From contig JAQXIJ010000028.1 of the NCBI GenBank assembly GCA_029007725.1, positions 6,115 through 70,114 on the forward strand: a stretch of 64,000 nucleotides of DNA. The letters run 5' to 3'. Below the pieces are notes generated by a model. It saw only the letters and a program-made list of their open reading frames with translations. It searched no databases and was not told where the DNA came from. The DNA is from Bacillota bacterium. Lineage in GTDB: Bacteria; Bacillota; Clostridia; UBA1381. Positions 2,020 to 63,689 of this stretch are shown one piece after another. The translations under genes and the position numbers were made by a program. The stretch's first letter is position 1, and each line of letters starts with the position of its first letter.

Positions 2020-4329
2020 ATGCCGGACATTATGATCTGCGCCGCGGCGTATGCACTCGGAGTGCTTGTTTCATCAAAGGTGAGCCTTTTCTATGTGCTG
2101 ATGTATTCTGTGTGTATGTTTATTGTTGGACTTATTGTGAACCACTTTTCCAAAAGAAAAAATTCGGTTCTGCTGATTGCCATAATAGTTTTTGCTTTTG
2201 GCGGTGTAAGATACTATCAGGCAAATTCAAACCGGCTTTATAATGCACTTCCGGACAAATATATCACCCTCGGCGGCACGGTAAATTCTATACCGCAAAA
2301 GACCGACAGCGGAAAATATAAATACTTTTTGTCCGCTGAATCGGCAGAATATTTGGGTCAAACCTATAAAATACGTCAGGAAATACTGCTTTATTTAAAA
2401 GAAGATGTCGAGTACGGAGACATTATTTCGGTTAAGGGTTTTCTTGACAAGCTGCCTGAAAAGATGAATCAGTCCGATTTTGACACTGCCATGTACTATA
2501 AAAGCAAGGGCATATACAACAGCCTTTCCGCCGATGAGATGATAAAAATCGGAGCAAAACACTCCTGCTCACCTGTGTTTTTGTTGGGAAAGCTGAAAAG
2601 CGAAATATACAAAATTATAGACGCAAACTATACGCGTGATGCCGGTGCGCTGCTTAAAGCCATTATTATCGGCTGCAAATCTGACTTTTCGGATGATTAC
2701 TACAGGTTGCTGCTTAAAACTGGCATGCTTCGGTTTTTATACGCGCCGTTTATACATATCTATATAATATTTTTCGCCATAGGACTTTTGTCAATGCTGA
2801 AGAAAAAAGTTCGTGACACTTTGGCGGTGATTTTGCTGACAATGTACGCGTTGGCAAACAGCGGATCGCTTATTATAGCCAAGGCGGTGATTATATCACT
2901 TATGTTAATTGCCGAACGTCGTATTTTCGGGTATTCCTCTTTGCTGCACACAATTTCGGCCGCGGTTCTTGTAATGCTGCTCATAAACCCGTTGCTTTGC
3001 TATAACTACGGATTTGTGATGTCGGTTGTTGCAGCACTTTTACTGCATCTGCTTTATGAACCGATTGAGGACAAAACCAAACCGTTGTTTGAAAAGCTGC
3101 ATATCGGAAGATACCTGCAGCGAACGCTTATTGTTTGGGTTACGATAACCATTGGAACACTGCCGCTTGCTGCGTTTTATTTTAACGGAATTTCGGTTTA
3201 CGGCATAATTTTTACGCTGCTTGCCGTTCCGTGTATAATGATTATAATTTTGCTTTCGCCTATTCTGCTTGCCATGCTTGCGCTTTTTGGCAGGGCACCG
3301 CTTATCGGCGATATTGTGGGCTTTATTTTGTATTTTATAAAAAATATGCCATATGTAGTGCATAGGCTTCCCGGATGTTATGTAATGCTCAAAACACCGT
3401 CAATACTGACGATAATCGATTTTTATCTTTCTCTGTGGATTTTTGCGCGTTGGCTGAAAAAGAGGAGTGATACCGGTTTTACGAAAATTCTTGCCTGCGC
3501 TCTCGCCGGATTTATTGCGTGCGGAATAATGACGTATGATTTTGGAGCGCTTAACATATATTTTGTGAATGTCGGTCAGGGCGACGGTGCAGTGCTGCAC
3601 ACCGCACGCGGAGAAACAGTTTTAATTGACGGCGGGGGCGCGCCGGTGTACAAAACCTATAATGTCGGCGAAAAAATATATGTGCCGTATCTTATAGCTC
3701 ACGGTTTCACAGACATAGACGTGGCCGTGGTCAGCCATTATCACAAAGACCATGTTGAGGGAATAATTGCTGCGGCGGAAAATCTTAAAATAAACACGCT
3801 TATTATGCCGGATTCCGAAAAGGGAGGAGAATACCGGACAAAGCTTGAAGAGGTTGCAAGGAACAAGAATATTAAGATTGAATATCTGCGCGAGAGTGAC
3901 GAAATCCGCTTTAGATCCGGAATGATTATGGAATTGCTCGCACCGGAAGAGGGTATGATGAAAAGTAATGATTTGAACACGACATCGATTGTGCTCCATG
4001 TAAAATACGGCGAATTTGACGCGCTGTTTACCGGTGATTCGCCGGATAATCGGATTTCGGAATATCCGAAAAATGTCGAGCTTTTAAAGGTTCCACATCA
4101 CGGCTCAAAAACGTCAAGTAGCGCCGAATATGTTTCATGGATAAATCCGCTGTTTGCGGTGATAAGCGTAGGAAAGAACAATACCTACGGACTGCCGAAA
4201 GAAGAGGTTTTAAACCGCTACCGGGAGACCGGTTCCCAAATTTTGCGAACTGATGAGCTCGGCGACATACGCTTTACGGTTGACAAAAAGAACAATATAA
4301 AATACGATTCGTACATGGGAGTTGAATAA
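2020..4329 (+). CDS. comEC: DNA internalization competence protein ComEC/Rec2
   Basis: Polytopic membrane core followed by a C-terminal metallo-beta-lactamase fold (NIYFVNVGQGDGAVLH, VVSHYHKDHVEG, KVPHHGSK). The ORF opens at 1999 (TTG). ATG 2020 has the best spacing to the GGGG Shine-Dalgarno; ATG 2011 is an alternative. Confidence 0.85.
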   Translation: MPDIMICAAAYALGVLVSSKVSLFYVLMYSVCMFIVGLIVNHFSKRKNSVLLIAIIVFAFGGVRYYQANSNRLYNALPDKYITLGGTVNSIPQKTDSGKYKYFLSAESAEYLGQTYKIRQEILLYLKEDVEYGDIISVKGFLDKLPEKMNQSDFDTAMYYKSKGIYNSLSADEMIKIGAKHSCSPVFLLGKLKSEIYKIIDANYTRDAGALLKAIIIGCKSDFSDDYYRLLLKTGMLRFLYAPFIHIYIIFFAIGLLSMLKKKVRDTLAVILLTMYALANSGSLIIAKAVIISLMLIAERRIFGYSSLLHTISAAVLVMLLINPLLCYNYGFVMSVVAALLLHLLYEPIEDKTKPLFEKLHIGRYLQRTLIVWVTITIGTLPLAAFYFNGISVYGIIFTLLAVPCIMIIILLSPILLAMLALFGRAPLIGDIVGFILYFIKNMPYVVHRLPGCYVMLKTPSILTIIDFYLSLWIFARWLKKRSDTGFTKILACALAGFIACGIMTYDFGALNIYFVNVGQGDGAVLHTARGETVLIDGGGAPVYKTYNVGEKIYVPYLIAHGFTDIDVAVVSHYHKDHVEGIIAAAENLKINTLIMPDSEKGGEYRTKLEEVARNKNIKIEYLRESDEIRFRSGMIMELLAPEEGMMKSNDLNTTSIVLHVKYGEFDALFTGDSPDNRISEYPKNVELLKVPHHGSKTSSSAEYVSWINPLFAVISVGKNNTYGLPKEEVLNRYRETGSQILRTDELGDIRFTVDKKNNIKYDSYMGVE

Positions 4330-16576: not shown

Positions 16577-16792
16577 ATGAGCGGCGAGGACTTGGCTGTG
16601 TTGGTGACGGCGGTTGCGATTACATCGGCACAGAGCCTTTCGGTAAAGGATTTGAATATTTTGGTAGCGGTTTTTACTCAGCTGGCAGACACCTATGCTA
16701 CAATTTCAGTTATACGCTCGCTCGAAGAGGAAAAAACCGAAACCCCGGCCGCACAGCAGGAGGAGGACATAGTTGCTCTTGAAACCACATAA
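16577..16792 (+). CDS. Small hypothetical protein (71 aa)
   Basis: RBS GAGGTG lies 5 nt upstream of the ATG. MSGEDLAVLVTAVAITSAQSLSVKDLNILVAVFTQLADTYATISVIRSLEEE... resembles a small Clostridia-specific family that I recall as DUF6774 (unverified). Own promoter-like TTCACA-17-TAATAT. Confidence 0.55.
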   Translation: MSGEDLAVLVTAVAITSAQSLSVKDLNILVAVFTQLADTYATISVIRSLEEEKTETPAAQQEEDIVALETT

Positions 16793-18611: not shown

Positions 18612-19982
18612 TTAAAAATCAACTTTAGGAAGAGTGTCGAAGCCCCTTTGCAAATCTTCATCGGTCGGGATATAGTCGGTCATTGTACCGTCGTTAAATG
18701 CCTTGTATGCTGACAGGTCAAAGTAGCCCGTTCCGGTCAGCCCGAAAATAATGGTCTTTTCTTCGCCTGATTCCTTGCATTTAAGCGCCTCATCGATTGC
18801 TACACGGATTGCGTGTGATGACTCGGGCGCAGGCAGAGTACCCTCTGTTTTTGCGAAAAAGGTTGCGGCTTCAAATACCTTTGTCTGTTCAACAGCCACC
18901 GCATCTATGTAGCCGTCATGATACAGCTTTGAAAGTATAGCAGACATACCGTGGTAACGCAAGCCACCAGCGTGGTTCGGTGAAGGCATAAATCCGCTGC
19001 CGAGAGTGTACATTTTTATAAGCGGTGTGGTTTTTCCGGTGTCGCCGAAATCAAAGGCATATTTTCCTCGTGTCAGTGATGGGCAGGATGCAGGCTCGAC
19101 TGCAATGAACTTTATGTCCGATTTGCCCTCGAGATTGTCTGCCATAAACGGAGAAATCAGTCCGCCTAGGTTAGATCCACCGCCGGCACAGCCGATGATT
19201 ATGTCTGGATGAATGTCATATTTTTCGCAGGCGGTCTTTGTTTCTTGACCGATTACGGTCTGATGCAGCAAAACGTGGTTTAAAACGCTGCCCAGAACAT
19301 AGCGGCAGTTCGGTGTATGAGTTGCGACCTCCATAGCCTCGGAGATTGCACAGCCAAGCGAACCTCCAGTTCCGGGGTTTTCCGCAAGAATTTTTCTGCC
19401 GACTTGGGTGGTGGTGGACGGCGACTTGATAACCTTTCCGCCGTAGGTTTCTATAACCGATTTGCGATAAGGTTTCTGCTCCGCCGAAACCTTAACCATG
19501 TAAACCGTAAGATCCATACCGTAGAACGCACACGCCATTGACAACGCCGTGCCCCACTGTCCTGCTCCAGTTTCGGTGGTGAGCGAAGTGAGCCCCTGTT
19601 TTTTTGCATAGTAAACCTGTGCGATAGCGGAGTTCAACTTGTGAGAGCCGGATGTGTTTGTACCCTCAAATTTGTAGTATATTTTTGCCGGGGTGTCAAG
19701 CGCTTTTTCAAGATTATATGCACGCACCAACGGAGACGGGCGGTACATTTTATAAAATGCCTGAACTTCTTCCGGAATGTCGATAAGCTTGTCGGTTACG
19801 TTGAGCTCCTGCTTGATAAGCTCGTGACAGAACACCGGCTCCAAGTCTTCTGCCGTACACGGCTGTCCGGTTGCTGGATTGATGAAAGGCTCTGGCAGTT
19901 CCTTCATGTACGGTCTGATGTTGACCCACTGTTTTGGCATTTCACTTTCTTCAAGATAAATTTTGTACGGAATTTTCGCCAT
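18612..19982 (-). CDS. trpB: TrpB-like PLP-dependent enzyme (tryptophan synthase beta, TrpB2 type)
   Basis: 456 aa with the long N-terminal extension typical of TrpB2 (MAKIPYKIYLEESEMPKQW...). ...FEGTNTSGSHKLNSA (PLP lysine) and ...GCAGGGSN. Confidence 0.9.
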   Translation of the reverse strand: MAKIPYKIYLEESEMPKQWVNIRPYMKELPEPFINPATGQPCTAEDLEPVFCHELIKQELNVTDKLIDIPEEVQAFYKMYRPSPLVRAYNLEKALDTPAKIYYKFEGTNTSGSHKLNSAIAQVYYAKKQGLTSLTTETGAGQWGTALSMACAFYGMDLTVYMVKVSAEQKPYRKSVIETYGGKVIKSPSTTTQVGRKILAENPGTGGSLGCAISEAMEVATHTPNCRYVLGSVLNHVLLHQTVIGQETKTACEKYDIHPDIIIGCAGGGSNLGGLISPFMADNLEGKSDIKFIAVEPASCPSLTRGKYAFDFGDTGKTTPLIKMYTLGSGFMPSPNHAGGLRYHGMSAILSKLYHDGYIDAVAVEQTKVFEAATFFAKTEGTLPAPESSHAIRVAIDEALKCKESGEEKTIIFGLTGTGYFDLSAYKAFNDGTMTDYIPTDEDLQRGFDTLPKVDF

Positions 19983-20016
19983 GATAAAAACCTCTTTTCT
20001 TTAATTTGCAGAAAAT

Positions 20017-20051
20017 AAAAAAGCCCTTGCTCGAATATGCCAGAACAAGGG
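20017..20051 (-). terminator. Leader (attenuator) terminator upstream of trpB2
   Basis: Minus-strand RNA CCCUUGUUC-UGGCAUAUUC-GAGCAAGGG, followed by CUUUUUUAUUUU. It lies between the promoter and the trpB2 start codon. Confidence 0.75.
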
Positions 20052-20098
20052 TATAGTTTTTATACGGTAAAAGAAATTTCATAATTAAATTTTAAAAT

Positions 20099-20151
20099 CT
20101 CATCTAATCTAATTAGGTTTTCAAAAAACTAATCTGTTCTAATCTATTCTC
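20099..20151 (-). promoter_or_regulatory. 5-nt-periodic NAG triplet array (TRAP-binding-site-like) in the trpB2 leader
   Basis: Minus-strand RNA GAG-aa-UAG-au-UAG-aa-CAG-au-UAG, a 17-nt gap, then UAG-au-UAG-au-GAG. All triplets share one 5-nt register. That register spans 11 slots, 8 of them occupied. Confidence 0.5.
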
Positions 20152-20162
20152 TGCTTGATGAC

Positions 20163-20191
20163 AATATAGCAGAAAATAAATGCCGTGTCAA
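20163..20191 (-). promoter_or_regulatory. Sigma-70-type promoter of the trpB2 leader
   Basis: On the minus strand: TTGACA (20191-20186), 17-nt spacer, TATATT (20168-20163). Confidence 0.7.
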
Positions 20192-21170: not shown

Positions 21171-21200
21171 TTGACAAATATCGTTCATGGGTGCTATAAT
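21171..21200 (+). promoter_or_regulatory. Sigma-70-type promoter of the aro operon leader
   Basis: TTGACA (21171-21176), 18-nt spacer, TATAAT (21195-21200). Confidence 0.7.
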
Positions 21201-21228
21201 GAAAAAAAATCGAATTTGGAGAAATAAA

Positions 21229-21312
21229 ATGAGAAACTTAAGCAGCACATTTGCATACTTTTATGGCTTTACATATTATTGTAAGGCCTTGTTGTGTTGC
21301 TCTGACAGTTAA
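21229..21312 (+). CDS. Phe/Tyr-rich leader peptide of the aromatic amino-acid operon (27 aa)
   Basis: RBS GGAGA lies 6 nt upstream of the ATG. The peptide is MRNLSSTFAYFYGFTYYCKALLCCSDS. Seven of ten consecutive codons (8-17) are Phe or Tyr. The stop is 19 nt before a terminator hairpin. Confidence 0.7.
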   Translation: MRNLSSTFAYFYGFTYYCKALLCCSDS

Positions 21313-21330
21313 TTCATTTTTGTTTTAACA

Positions 21331-21366
21331 GGACTGCAGTGTAACACACCGCAGTCCATTTTTTAT
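21331..21366 (+). terminator. Attenuator terminator of the aro operon leader
   Basis: GGACUGC-A-GUGU-aac-ACAC-c-GCAGUCC, followed by AUUUUUUAU. It lies 64 nt upstream of the DAHP synthase start. Confidence 0.8.
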
Positions 21367-21429: not shown

Positions 21430-22437
21430 ATGATACTCGTACTTAAAGAAAATTATGACAAAAAGCAGCTTGAAAATCTTACCTCATGGCTTAAAGAACA
21501 GAACATAGACATTCACCTGAGTCAAGGTAAGCAGACGACAATTCTCGGACTTATCGGTGATACGTCCGCGCTTGATATCGATATGCTGTCAACGCTCGAC
21601 ATTGTTGAAACCGCAAAGAGAATTCAGGAGCCTTACAAAAATGCCAACAGAAAATTCCACCCGGACGACACCGTGATAAGTGTGGGAGATGTAAAAATCG
21701 GCGGCGGAAACTTTGGAATAATTGCAGGACCGTGTTCTGTCGAATCGGAGGAGCAACTCTGCACTATTGCAGAGGATGTAAAGGCTTCGGGTGCAAAAAT
21801 GCTGCGTGGAGGCGCTTTCAAGCCGAGAACATCTCCGTATGCTTTCCAGGGTCTGCGCGAAAAGGGAATTGAGCTTTTGCTGCGAGCAAAAGAAAAAACA
21901 GGACTTCCGATTGTGACAGAAATTATGGATCTTTCACATCTGCCACTGTTCAAGGATGTTGACGTCATTCAGGTTGGAGCAAGAAATATGCAGAATTTTG
22001 AGCTTTTGAAGGAGCTTGGAAAAACAAATAAGCCTATTTTGTTAAAGCGTGGTCTTTCAAGCACTTTGCAGGAGCTGCTGATGAGTGCCGAATACATCAT
22101 GGCGGGCGGAAACAGCAACGTTATACTGTGTGAGCGAGGCATAAGAACCTTTGAAACAGCAACGCGAAATACGCTTGATTTGTCGGCAGTACCGCTTTTA
22201 AGACAAATGACGCATCTGCCTATTATAGTTGACCCCAGCCACGCTACCGGAATTGCAAAGCTGGTAAAGCCTATGGCCGTTGCGGCTACGGCTGCTGGAT
22301 CAGACGGATTGATTATAGAGGTACACAACGATCCACCCCATGCATTGTGCGACGGTGCCCAGTCACTTACTCCGGAGCAGTTTGCAGACCTTAAGAAATC
22401 GGTGGATAATGTGCTGCCGTTTGCATGCAGATCATGA
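21430..22437 (+). CDS. aroF: 3-deoxy-7-phosphoheptulonate (DAHP) synthase, type I-beta, with an N-terminal regulatory domain
   Basis: A ~70-aa ferredoxin-like N-domain followed by the catalytic barrel (GPCSVES...[14 protein letters not shown]...KRG...DPSH). The architecture matches Thermotoga-type DAHPS. Confidence 0.9.
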
Positions 22438-28424: not shown

Positions 28425-28997
28425 ATGAGCAGAGTTTCAACAAAAAATCTGGCACTCGCGGCAATACTGACTGCGCTTGTCGTTATACTGCAGTTTCTCG
28501 GAGCTTTTATTAAGCTCGGACCGTTTTCGATTTCAACGGTTTTGATACCCATTGTTGTCGGTTCGGCAATCTGTGGCGTCGGCATAGGTGCGTGGCTTGG
28601 GTTTGTTTTCGGTGTTGTAGTACTTTTGAGCGGCGATGCGGCTGCGTTTTTGGCGGTTAATGTGCCGGGAACTATTATAACGGTGCTTTTAAAGGGTACA
28701 CTATGCGGTCTGGCAGCAGGAGTAGTTTACAGGCTGCTGGCAAAATTCAGCACCTATGCTGCAGTTGCGGCTGCTGCGGTTGTGTGTCCGATTGTAAACA
28801 CGGGCGTGTTTCTTTTGGGATGTCTTTTGTTCTTTATGCCAACAGTAACTGAATGGGCGGCAGCTGCAGGACTGGGTGAAAATGTTGCGCAGTTTATGAT
28901 TGTCGGACTTGTGGGACTTAATTTTCTTGTTGAAATGGGAATAAATATCGTTTTAAGTCCTATTATCGTAAGACTGCTTAATGCAAGAAATAAATAA
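28425..28997 (+). CDS. ECF transporter S component (substrate unknown)
   Basis: 190-aa, 6-TM protein. N-terminus ...TKNLALAAILTALVVILQF.... It lies just upstream of the ecfA1A2T module. RBS AGGAGG. Promoter TTGACG-17-TAAAAT lies upstream. No riboswitch-sized leader is present. Confidence 0.7.
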   Translation: MSRVSTKNLALAAILTALVVILQFLGAFIKLGPFSISTVLIPIVVGSAICGVGIGAWLGFVFGVVVLLSGDAAAFLAVNVPGTIITVLLKGTLCGLAAGVVYRLLAKFSTYAAVAAAAVVCPIVNTGVFLLGCLLFFMPTVTEWAAAAGLGENVAQFMIVGLVGLNFLVEMGINIVLSPIIVRLLNARNK

Positions 28998-63454: not shown

Positions 63455-63689
63455 CGACGAATGTTAGAGGTGCGGTATTTATAAGTAGGACGCTTCGACT
63501 GTAGGCAAAGGGGGCGCGCCGAAAGGAAACACCGCCGAAATATACAGCTTTGTTGCCTTGGGGCTGTATATTGGGCTGCAGCATAACATGCTGCGGACTG
63601 TCACACTTGTGAAGCGCTAACCGTAGTTTTAAGTATTTGAGTTTGTTTATTAAACCGTGTACGTAGACTATCAGCGTTCACGGTTTTTT
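63455..63689 (+). ncRNA. Lysine riboswitch (L-box) with a terminator expression platform
   Basis: Conserved blocks AGAGGUGCG, AAGUAGG, AAAGGGGGCGCGCCGAAAGG and GGACUGUCA in the order seen in B. subtilis lysC. P1 pairs GUUAG with CUAAC. The terminator AACCGUG...CACGGUU plus U6 lies at 63653-63689. Confidence 0.85.

Follow-up and report, generated by a model that had tools for sequence, protein, structure and literature searches.

What controls trpB2, a stand-alone gene in the genome of an uncultured gut member of the Clostridia? The DNA examined here, called the window, is a 64,000-nt stretch of a metagenome-assembled genome (MAG) with a GC content of 43.7%. Between the trpB2 promoter and its start codon, NAG triplets recur every 5 nt and are followed by an intrinsic terminator. 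An initial annotation likened this run of triplets to a site for TRAP, the MtrB protein that acts on the trpEDCFBA leader of Bacillus subtilis. We asked whether the array is more than chance, whether it is coupled to the terminator and which protein would read it.

The gene product (MDD6213967.1) matches the families NF009057 (679 bits) and TIGR01415 (584 bits) and, judged by its sequence, is TrpB2. Upstream of the gene, on the same strand, lies a gene for an RluA-family pseudouridine synthase, and downstream lies a convergent AlaX-like gene. A divergent aromatic amino-acid operon starts at 21430 and encodes DAHP synthase, prephenate dehydrogenase, dehydroquinate synthase, EPSP synthase, chorismate synthase and chorismate mutase/prephenate dehydratase.

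The leader lies where the initial annotation placed it, on the minus strand between a near-consensus promoter and trpB2, and the triplet coordinates and the description given there are correct (Table 1). Transcription likely starts near A20156-A20159. The eight (G/U/C)AG triplets and the terminator that the annotation described after them are all present. The triplets (2 GAG, 5 UAG and 1 CAG) share a single 5-nt register that runs over 11 slots from first to last, and 6 of 6 internal spacers are 2 nt long. An in-register AAG at 20156-20154 is a possible ninth triplet, which would bring the array to 9 triplets in 12 slots. Between the last triplet and the start of the terminator are 47 nt of AU-rich RNA. 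The terminator hairpin alone has a predicted folding energy of -13.2 kcal/mol; it was missing from a program scan for terminators because its loop exceeds the 8-nt limit of that scan.

Table 1. Features of the trpB2 leader and gene. Positions are those of the window; triplet positions give the first base on the minus strand, and the plus-strand numbers used in the initial annotation denote the same triplets.
Feature	Position	Strand	Basis
Complete trpB2 leader	20191-19983	minus	Read from sequence
Sigma-70-type promoter: TTGACA (20191-20186), 17 nt, TATATT (20168-20163), TG extension	20163-20191	minus	11/12 matches
Triplet block 1: GAG-aa-UAG-au-UAG-aa-CAG-au-UAG, 5 triplets with 2-nt spacers (GAG 20151, UAG 20146, UAG 20141, CAG 20136, UAG 20131)	20129-20151	minus	Register and statistics
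Proposed antiterminator 5' strand, within the array: GAAUA, UUAGAACAG, UAGUUUUU	20124-20149	minus	Duplex calculation
Array interruption of 17 nt; small local hairpin possible (AUUAGUUUU / AAAACCUAAU), taking in the fifth triplet	20112-20134	minus	Predicted folds
Triplet block 2: UAG-au-UAG-au-GAG, in the 5-nt register of block 1 (UAG 20111, UAG 20106, GAG 20101)	20099-20111	minus	
Proposed antiterminator 3' strand: AAAAACUA, CUUGUUCUGG, UAUUC	20033-20061	minus	Duplex and fold
Intrinsic terminator: 9-bp stem (one G-U pair) with arms CCCUUGUUC (20051-20043) and GAGCAAGGG (20032-24), 10-nt loop, then the U-run CUUUUUUAUUUU	20012-20051	minus	Sequence and fold
Ribosome-binding site GAGG, 8 nt 5' of the ATG, clear of the array	19991-19994	minus	Sequence
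trpB2: TrpB-like PLP enzyme, 456 aa, stands alone, ATG at 19982	18612-19982	minus	PALP domain

With 8 of 11 slots occupied (7 of 11 when only G/U-AG is counted), the array has the top score on both strands of the window, where the runner-up reaches 5. Of 200 first-order Markov simulations of 64 kb, 105 peaked at a score of 4, 90 at 5 and 5 at 6. The 241-nt leader is identical base for base in three other independent assemblies of the same organism and is therefore no assembly artefact. The array as such is confirmed. About 1.3 Mb of fetched loci were scanned for arrays of this kind. Arrays filling at least 7 of 11 slots occurred only before trpB2. Five or more canonical triplets in a chain were likewise confined to this place, with the exception of a single weaker run, a chance one with 3-nt spacers in a coding region.

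The annotation had also suggested a comparison of orthologous trpB2 leaders, for which 160 orthologue loci with 70-84% protein identity were collected (80 metagenomic, 80 from GTDB genomes). In 4 of the 160 (L008, L100, L102 and L131) the same place holds a triplet array with a terminator after it, and most of the other orthologues carry a Trp T-box. A T-box motif occupies the same slot in 80 of 160, with a GAA-UGG-R specifier in 68 of these 80, and Rfam confirmed an RF00230 T-box in L030, L103, L143 and L104. Among the array leaders, that of L131, a Hadza gut MAG, has 9 consecutive triplets with 2-nt spacers throughout, directly after a consensus promoter. The L008 leader has 10 triplets, that of L100 (an Oscillospiraceae MAG) has 6, and that of L102 has 6 plus 3 looser ones. 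The span of exactly 11 slots reported in the initial annotation is thus true of the window and is not a conserved feature, as the relatives have 6 to 10 triplets. The array sequences are not identical among leaders; what is kept is the AG core, a G or U (sometimes C) as first base, and the spacing, with 2-nt spacers predominating across the five array leaders. The genes flanking trpB2 differ among the window, L102 and L131, so the array leader goes with trpB2 and not with its neighbourhood.

One further orthologue (L006:3700-4000, plus strand) has neither T-box nor array. Its leader contains a short ORF, MEQLYIFRW-stop, followed by a terminator-like hairpin, and looks like a Trp-codon leader-peptide attenuator in the trpB2 slot. 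Since T-boxes with a Trp specifier and this Trp leader peptide occupy the slot, it is a Trp-sensing position in which at least three interchangeable devices, among them the array leader, are found. Separately, the closest TrpB2 relatives, L099 (84% identity) and L101 (83%), both from genomes of 35% GC, have upstream of position 4001 a consensus promoter and a short leader with no array, T-box or terminator, and their trpB2 looks unregulated at the leader level. A c-di-AMP riboswitch (RF00379, 90.6 bits; L005:2708-2844, plus strand) lies just downstream of another trpB2 orthologue.

The initial annotation had pointed to a complementarity between AGAACA in the array and UGUUCU in the 5' arm of the terminator. 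This pairing is present and extends to three predicted helices, GAAUA:UAUUC, UUAGAACAG:CUUGUUCUGG and UAGUUUUU:AAAAACUA, in which the 3' strand spans pre-terminator sequence, most of the terminator 5' arm and the terminator loop. The duplex between array and terminator region in the window comprises 22 bp at -16.3 kcal/mol (p = 0.016 against dinucleotide shuffles), a significance that requires the flanking AAAAACUA plus the loop UAUUC in the test; with the terminator 5' arm alone the window duplex is not significant (p about 0.3). The same test in the relatives gave p = 0.03 for L131, 0.06 for L102, 0.15 for L008 and 0.21 for L100, and Fisher's combined p for the five leaders is 0.002.

When the nascent RNA of the window is folded up to the terminator loop, UUAGAACA of the array pairs with UGUUCUGG of the terminator 5' arm, and when the array is held single-stranded, the terminator is the sole remaining structure. 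The full-length window leader is still predicted to fold into the terminator at equilibrium, which counts against the proposed switch; read-through would therefore depend on the kinetics of co-transcriptional folding. For the free RNA of L131 and L102, the minimum-energy fold is the antiterminator, and the terminator appears only with the array held single-stranded. An array that overlaps an antiterminator exclusive of the terminator is thus predicted for the window and seen more clearly in the predictions for L131 and L102.

In Bacillus, Trp-activated TRAP binds 9-11 NAG repeats and occludes an antiterminator, and the terminator forms (PMC4347634). The 2-nt spacers and the preference for G or U at the first triplet position match this known site signature and support a TRAP reading of the window array (PMC4347634). 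A scheme of the following kind would account for the leader. Transcription would start about 5 nt before the first triplet. At low Trp, the five triplets of the first block in the nascent RNA (20149-20124) would pair with 20061-20033, which would block the terminator hairpin and let RNA polymerase read into trpB2. When Trp is plentiful, a Trp-activated multi-subunit RNA-binding protein would occupy the (G/U/C)AG triplets, set 5 nt apart in two blocks. The binder would most likely be a ring-shaped TRAP (MtrB, PF02081) homologue encoded elsewhere in the genome. The bound protein would keep the array single-stranded, so that the terminator could form and transcription would stop before trpB2.

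We infer the binding of a protein to the array, its identity as a TRAP homologue and the role of tryptophan as the signal. It is likely that the trpB2 leader is some form of attenuator worked by a protein and related to tryptophan. With moderate confidence we favour the reading in which this protein is a TRAP homologue and acts in the manner of the Bacillus transcription attenuator.

How close is the leader to its model? As in the B. subtilis trp leader, (G/U)AG triplets lie mostly 2 nt apart, the target gene functions in tryptophan synthesis, the array shares sequence with the 5' strand of an antiterminator, a structure in competition with an intrinsic terminator (by prediction in the window), and the bound protein causes termination (as proposed here). 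The differences lie in number, composition, position and target. A TRAP site has nine to eleven continuous repeats, and the B. subtilis trp leader has 11 that are nearly contiguous, whereas the window has 8 (9 with the AAG) in two blocks split by 17 nt, with the register kept across the split. The window array is UAG-rich with one CAG, and it begins within about 5 nt of the transcription start without a 5' stem-loop. Its target is not the trp operon but a trpB2 that stands alone, and its host is an uncultured gut member of the Clostridia known from a MAG. The imperfections by Bacillus standards (the CAG, the 17-nt split and the lack of an upstream 5' stem-loop) count against the TRAP reading.

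Sub-maximal numbers of NAG repeats (about 9) and occasional longer spacers are also found at the B. subtilis TRAP sites of trpG, trpP and ycbK. At those genes the site coincides in part with the ribosome-binding site or the start codon, whereas the window array lies about 105 nt 5' of the ribosome-binding site. Its location far 5' of that site, paired with a terminator, implies that control would be transcriptional.

Two other systems invite comparison. The tRNA-Trp T-box leaders (RF00230) of trpB2 orthologues share with the window leader the slot, the gene, a terminator and presumably a tryptophan-supply signal. T-boxes, however, recognise uncharged tRNA through contacts between the two RNAs and work by antitermination, and the window leader has neither the sequence nor the structure of one. 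HutP, which acts on the hut leader of B. subtilis, is likewise a ring-shaped protein that recognises repeated UAG triplets in a leader with a terminator. HutP sites have 4-nt spacers and two sets of three triplets, and HutP, unlike the regulator envisaged here, is a histidine-dependent antiterminator in the context of histidine utilisation. The 2-nt spacers of the window array do not fit a HutP-type site.

The protein itself was sought by homology. The initial annotation reported no mtrB in the window, and tblastn together with two TRAP HMMs agrees: no TRAP-like ORF was found in the 64 kb. A 71-aa ORF at 16577-16792, considered as a possible small regulator, does not resemble TRAP. Nor did tblastn and HMMs find a PF02081 gene within 4 kb on either side of trpB2 at the 160 orthologue loci; among all fetched loci, matches were confined to those retrieved by way of TRAP proteins. 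The TRAP reading of the initial annotation holds up in its cis part (array, register, terminator and pairing), which the recurrence of arrays in relatives strengthens, whereas its trans part, a TRAP homologue, was found neither in the window nor at the trpB2 loci.

TRAP is nevertheless common in gut Clostridia. With the Geobacillus MtrB protein as query, only Bacillaceae were among the matches listed; a profile search of cluster representatives retrieved about 50 full-length TRAP types, in a family of about 150 representatives at 50% identity with large clades from gut and anaerobic Clostridia. The clade around P0165/P0276 comprises 47 proteins, some of them present on more than 1000 contigs, and the clade around P0156 comprises 547 proteins and includes Anaerotignum and Epulopiscium; the only names returned by look-ups of the TRAP clusters were Anaerotignum, Epulopiscium and 'Clostridia bacterium'. 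The Bacillus TRAP gene sits in the mtrAB operon. In every inspected contig of both Clostridia clades (hosts of 31-52% GC), mtrB lies between dnaE and pfkA; the loci inspected were L085-L098, L179-L187, L190-L200 and L188/L189. The last pair belongs to a high-GC MAG (59%) outside both clades, and its TRAP gene is near dnaE without adjoining pfkA. No triplet arrays occur near the TRAP genes in the fetched TRAP loci.

None of these genes could be assigned to the window organism. No retrieved TRAP protein has an accession near MDD62139xx, the range of the window MAG, and none of the TRAP contigs inspected in nine look-ups comes from samples SRR20662460, SRR20662473, SRR24151132 or ERZ27280508, which hold that organism. 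TRAP hosts range from 31 to 60% GC, and the L194 host, at 43%, is near the 43.7% of the window. L194 is also the best tetranucleotide match to the window among TRAP contigs (r = 0.80), but this is too low to infer the same genome; pieces of the window itself reach 0.95-0.97. We count the spread of TRAP genes through gut and anaerobic Clostridia, one host having 43% GC, in favour of the TRAP reading, and the lack of a TRAP gene tied to the window genome against it. The presence of TRAP in the window lineage is plausible.

Key residues vary within the TRAP family. Bacillus TRAP binds RNA through Lys37, Lys56 and Arg58. Proteins of the P0165 clade vary at the position that corresponds to Lys37 (G/A/V/M/S/N/Q) and have K or R at position 58, often Lys instead of Arg58. 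P0207, P0247, P0248, P0258 and P0267 are without the GxTRGxDT...HH loop.

These variants bear on the alternative that survives best, in which the leader works by the same logic and is read by a different multi-subunit RNA-binding protein, either outside PF02081 or a very divergent TRAP-like one, with tryptophan, indole or something else as the signal. Clades with altered key residues exist within the TRAP family, the arrays are UAG-rich and tolerate a CAG, and no TRAP gene is linked to any of the five array-bearing genomes. We nevertheless regard a different protein as unlikely: the period of 5 nt, the NAG core and the association with a trp gene all point specifically to TRAP, no family other than TRAP is known to bind NAG triplets spaced by 2 nt, and the absence of TRAP concerns the window and the trpB2 loci rather than the whole genome. 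We also think it quite unlikely that the trpB2 arrays of these gut Clostridia are read by anything other than a canonical TRAP, be it a TRAP of a divergent clade or an unrelated ring protein. Candidates for such a reader could be the clade with a variable position 37 and K or R at position 58, or a clade without the tryptophan-binding loop, and its ligand might be indole or some other compound that suits a TrpB2 engaged in indole salvage.

Could the array be a neutral 5-nt microsatellite, a TAGAT-like slippage product in an AT-rich leader whose only functional element, if any, is the terminator? The repeat unit is simple (UAGAU / UAGAA), its surroundings are AT-rich and the window leader reaches the terminator fold unaided at equilibrium. 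Slippage would not be expected to yield what the orthologues show, namely arrays with other spacers and triplet orders in four leaders with differing neighbour genes, conserved in AG core and spacing only, as selection on a binding site would leave them. Arrays are, moreover, essentially absent elsewhere in the 1.3 Mb, and we judge this explanation very improbable.

A DNA-level operator, in which the direct repeats would bind a repressor just downstream of the transcription start, is a still fainter prospect. The array does lie between about +5 and +58, a location from which a roadblock repressor could act, and its repeats are direct. A period of 5 bp, however, would put successive sites on opposite faces of the DNA helix, the NAG triplets are on the sense strand in 5 of 5 leaders, which is a strand-specific conservation, and each leader keeps a terminator and an array complementarity that would have no role in a DNA operator.

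We give next to no credence to a T-box, riboswitch or leader-peptide attenuator that happens to contain triplets, even though orthologous genes use T-boxes and in one case a leader peptide, since the window leader has no Rfam match at E-values up to 10, the T-box motif (GGUGGNACCGC) was not found in it, and the AUG-started frames in 20156-19983 have neither a ribosome-binding site nor an in-frame UGG.

We return to TRAP-type attenuation as the preferred reading. To our knowledge, nearly all work on TRAP control concerns Bacillus and its close relatives. A literature search, covering mostly sources other than subscription journals, turned up nothing on TRAP in Clostridia or on TRAP sites upstream of trpB2; subscription journals do contain comparative work on trp regulation in Gram-positive bacteria. 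The window leader is probably a TRAP-type attenuator on a new target and in a new host group. If so, TRAP-type sites would extend to uncultured Clostridia of the gut, a setting in which the metabolism of tryptophan and indole is important to the host, and the targets of TRAP would include a stand-alone, indole-scavenging trpB2. The gene would also be a case of natural regulatory turnover, in which related genomes control trpB2 through a tRNA-Trp T-box, through a Trp leader peptide or through a protein switch that reads triplet repeats. The array offers a simple sequence signature for finding TRAP regulons in metagenomes.

Other regulatory elements were seen in the window. The leader of the divergent aromatic operon (21171-21364, plus strand) resembles a ribosome-mediated attenuator. 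It has a promoter with TTGACA (21171-21176) and TATAAT (21195-21200), a GGAG ribosome-binding site 5' of a leader ORF of 27 codons (21229-21312; MRNLSSTFAYFYGFTYYCKALLCCSDS) with 3 Phe and 4 Tyr in 10 residues, and a strong terminator at 21331-21364; the fold z-score is -5.9. Control of an aro operon by leader-peptide attenuation is, as far as we know, unusual in Firmicutes. Downstream of this operon, there is an ECF-transporter S component (28425-28997, plus strand) with no NCBIfam match. It has a promoter-like region of its own, without a recognised riboswitch or array, and its substrate may be related to aromatic amino acids. A lysine riboswitch (RF00168, 96 bits) lies near the end of the window, at 63457-63627 on the plus strand.
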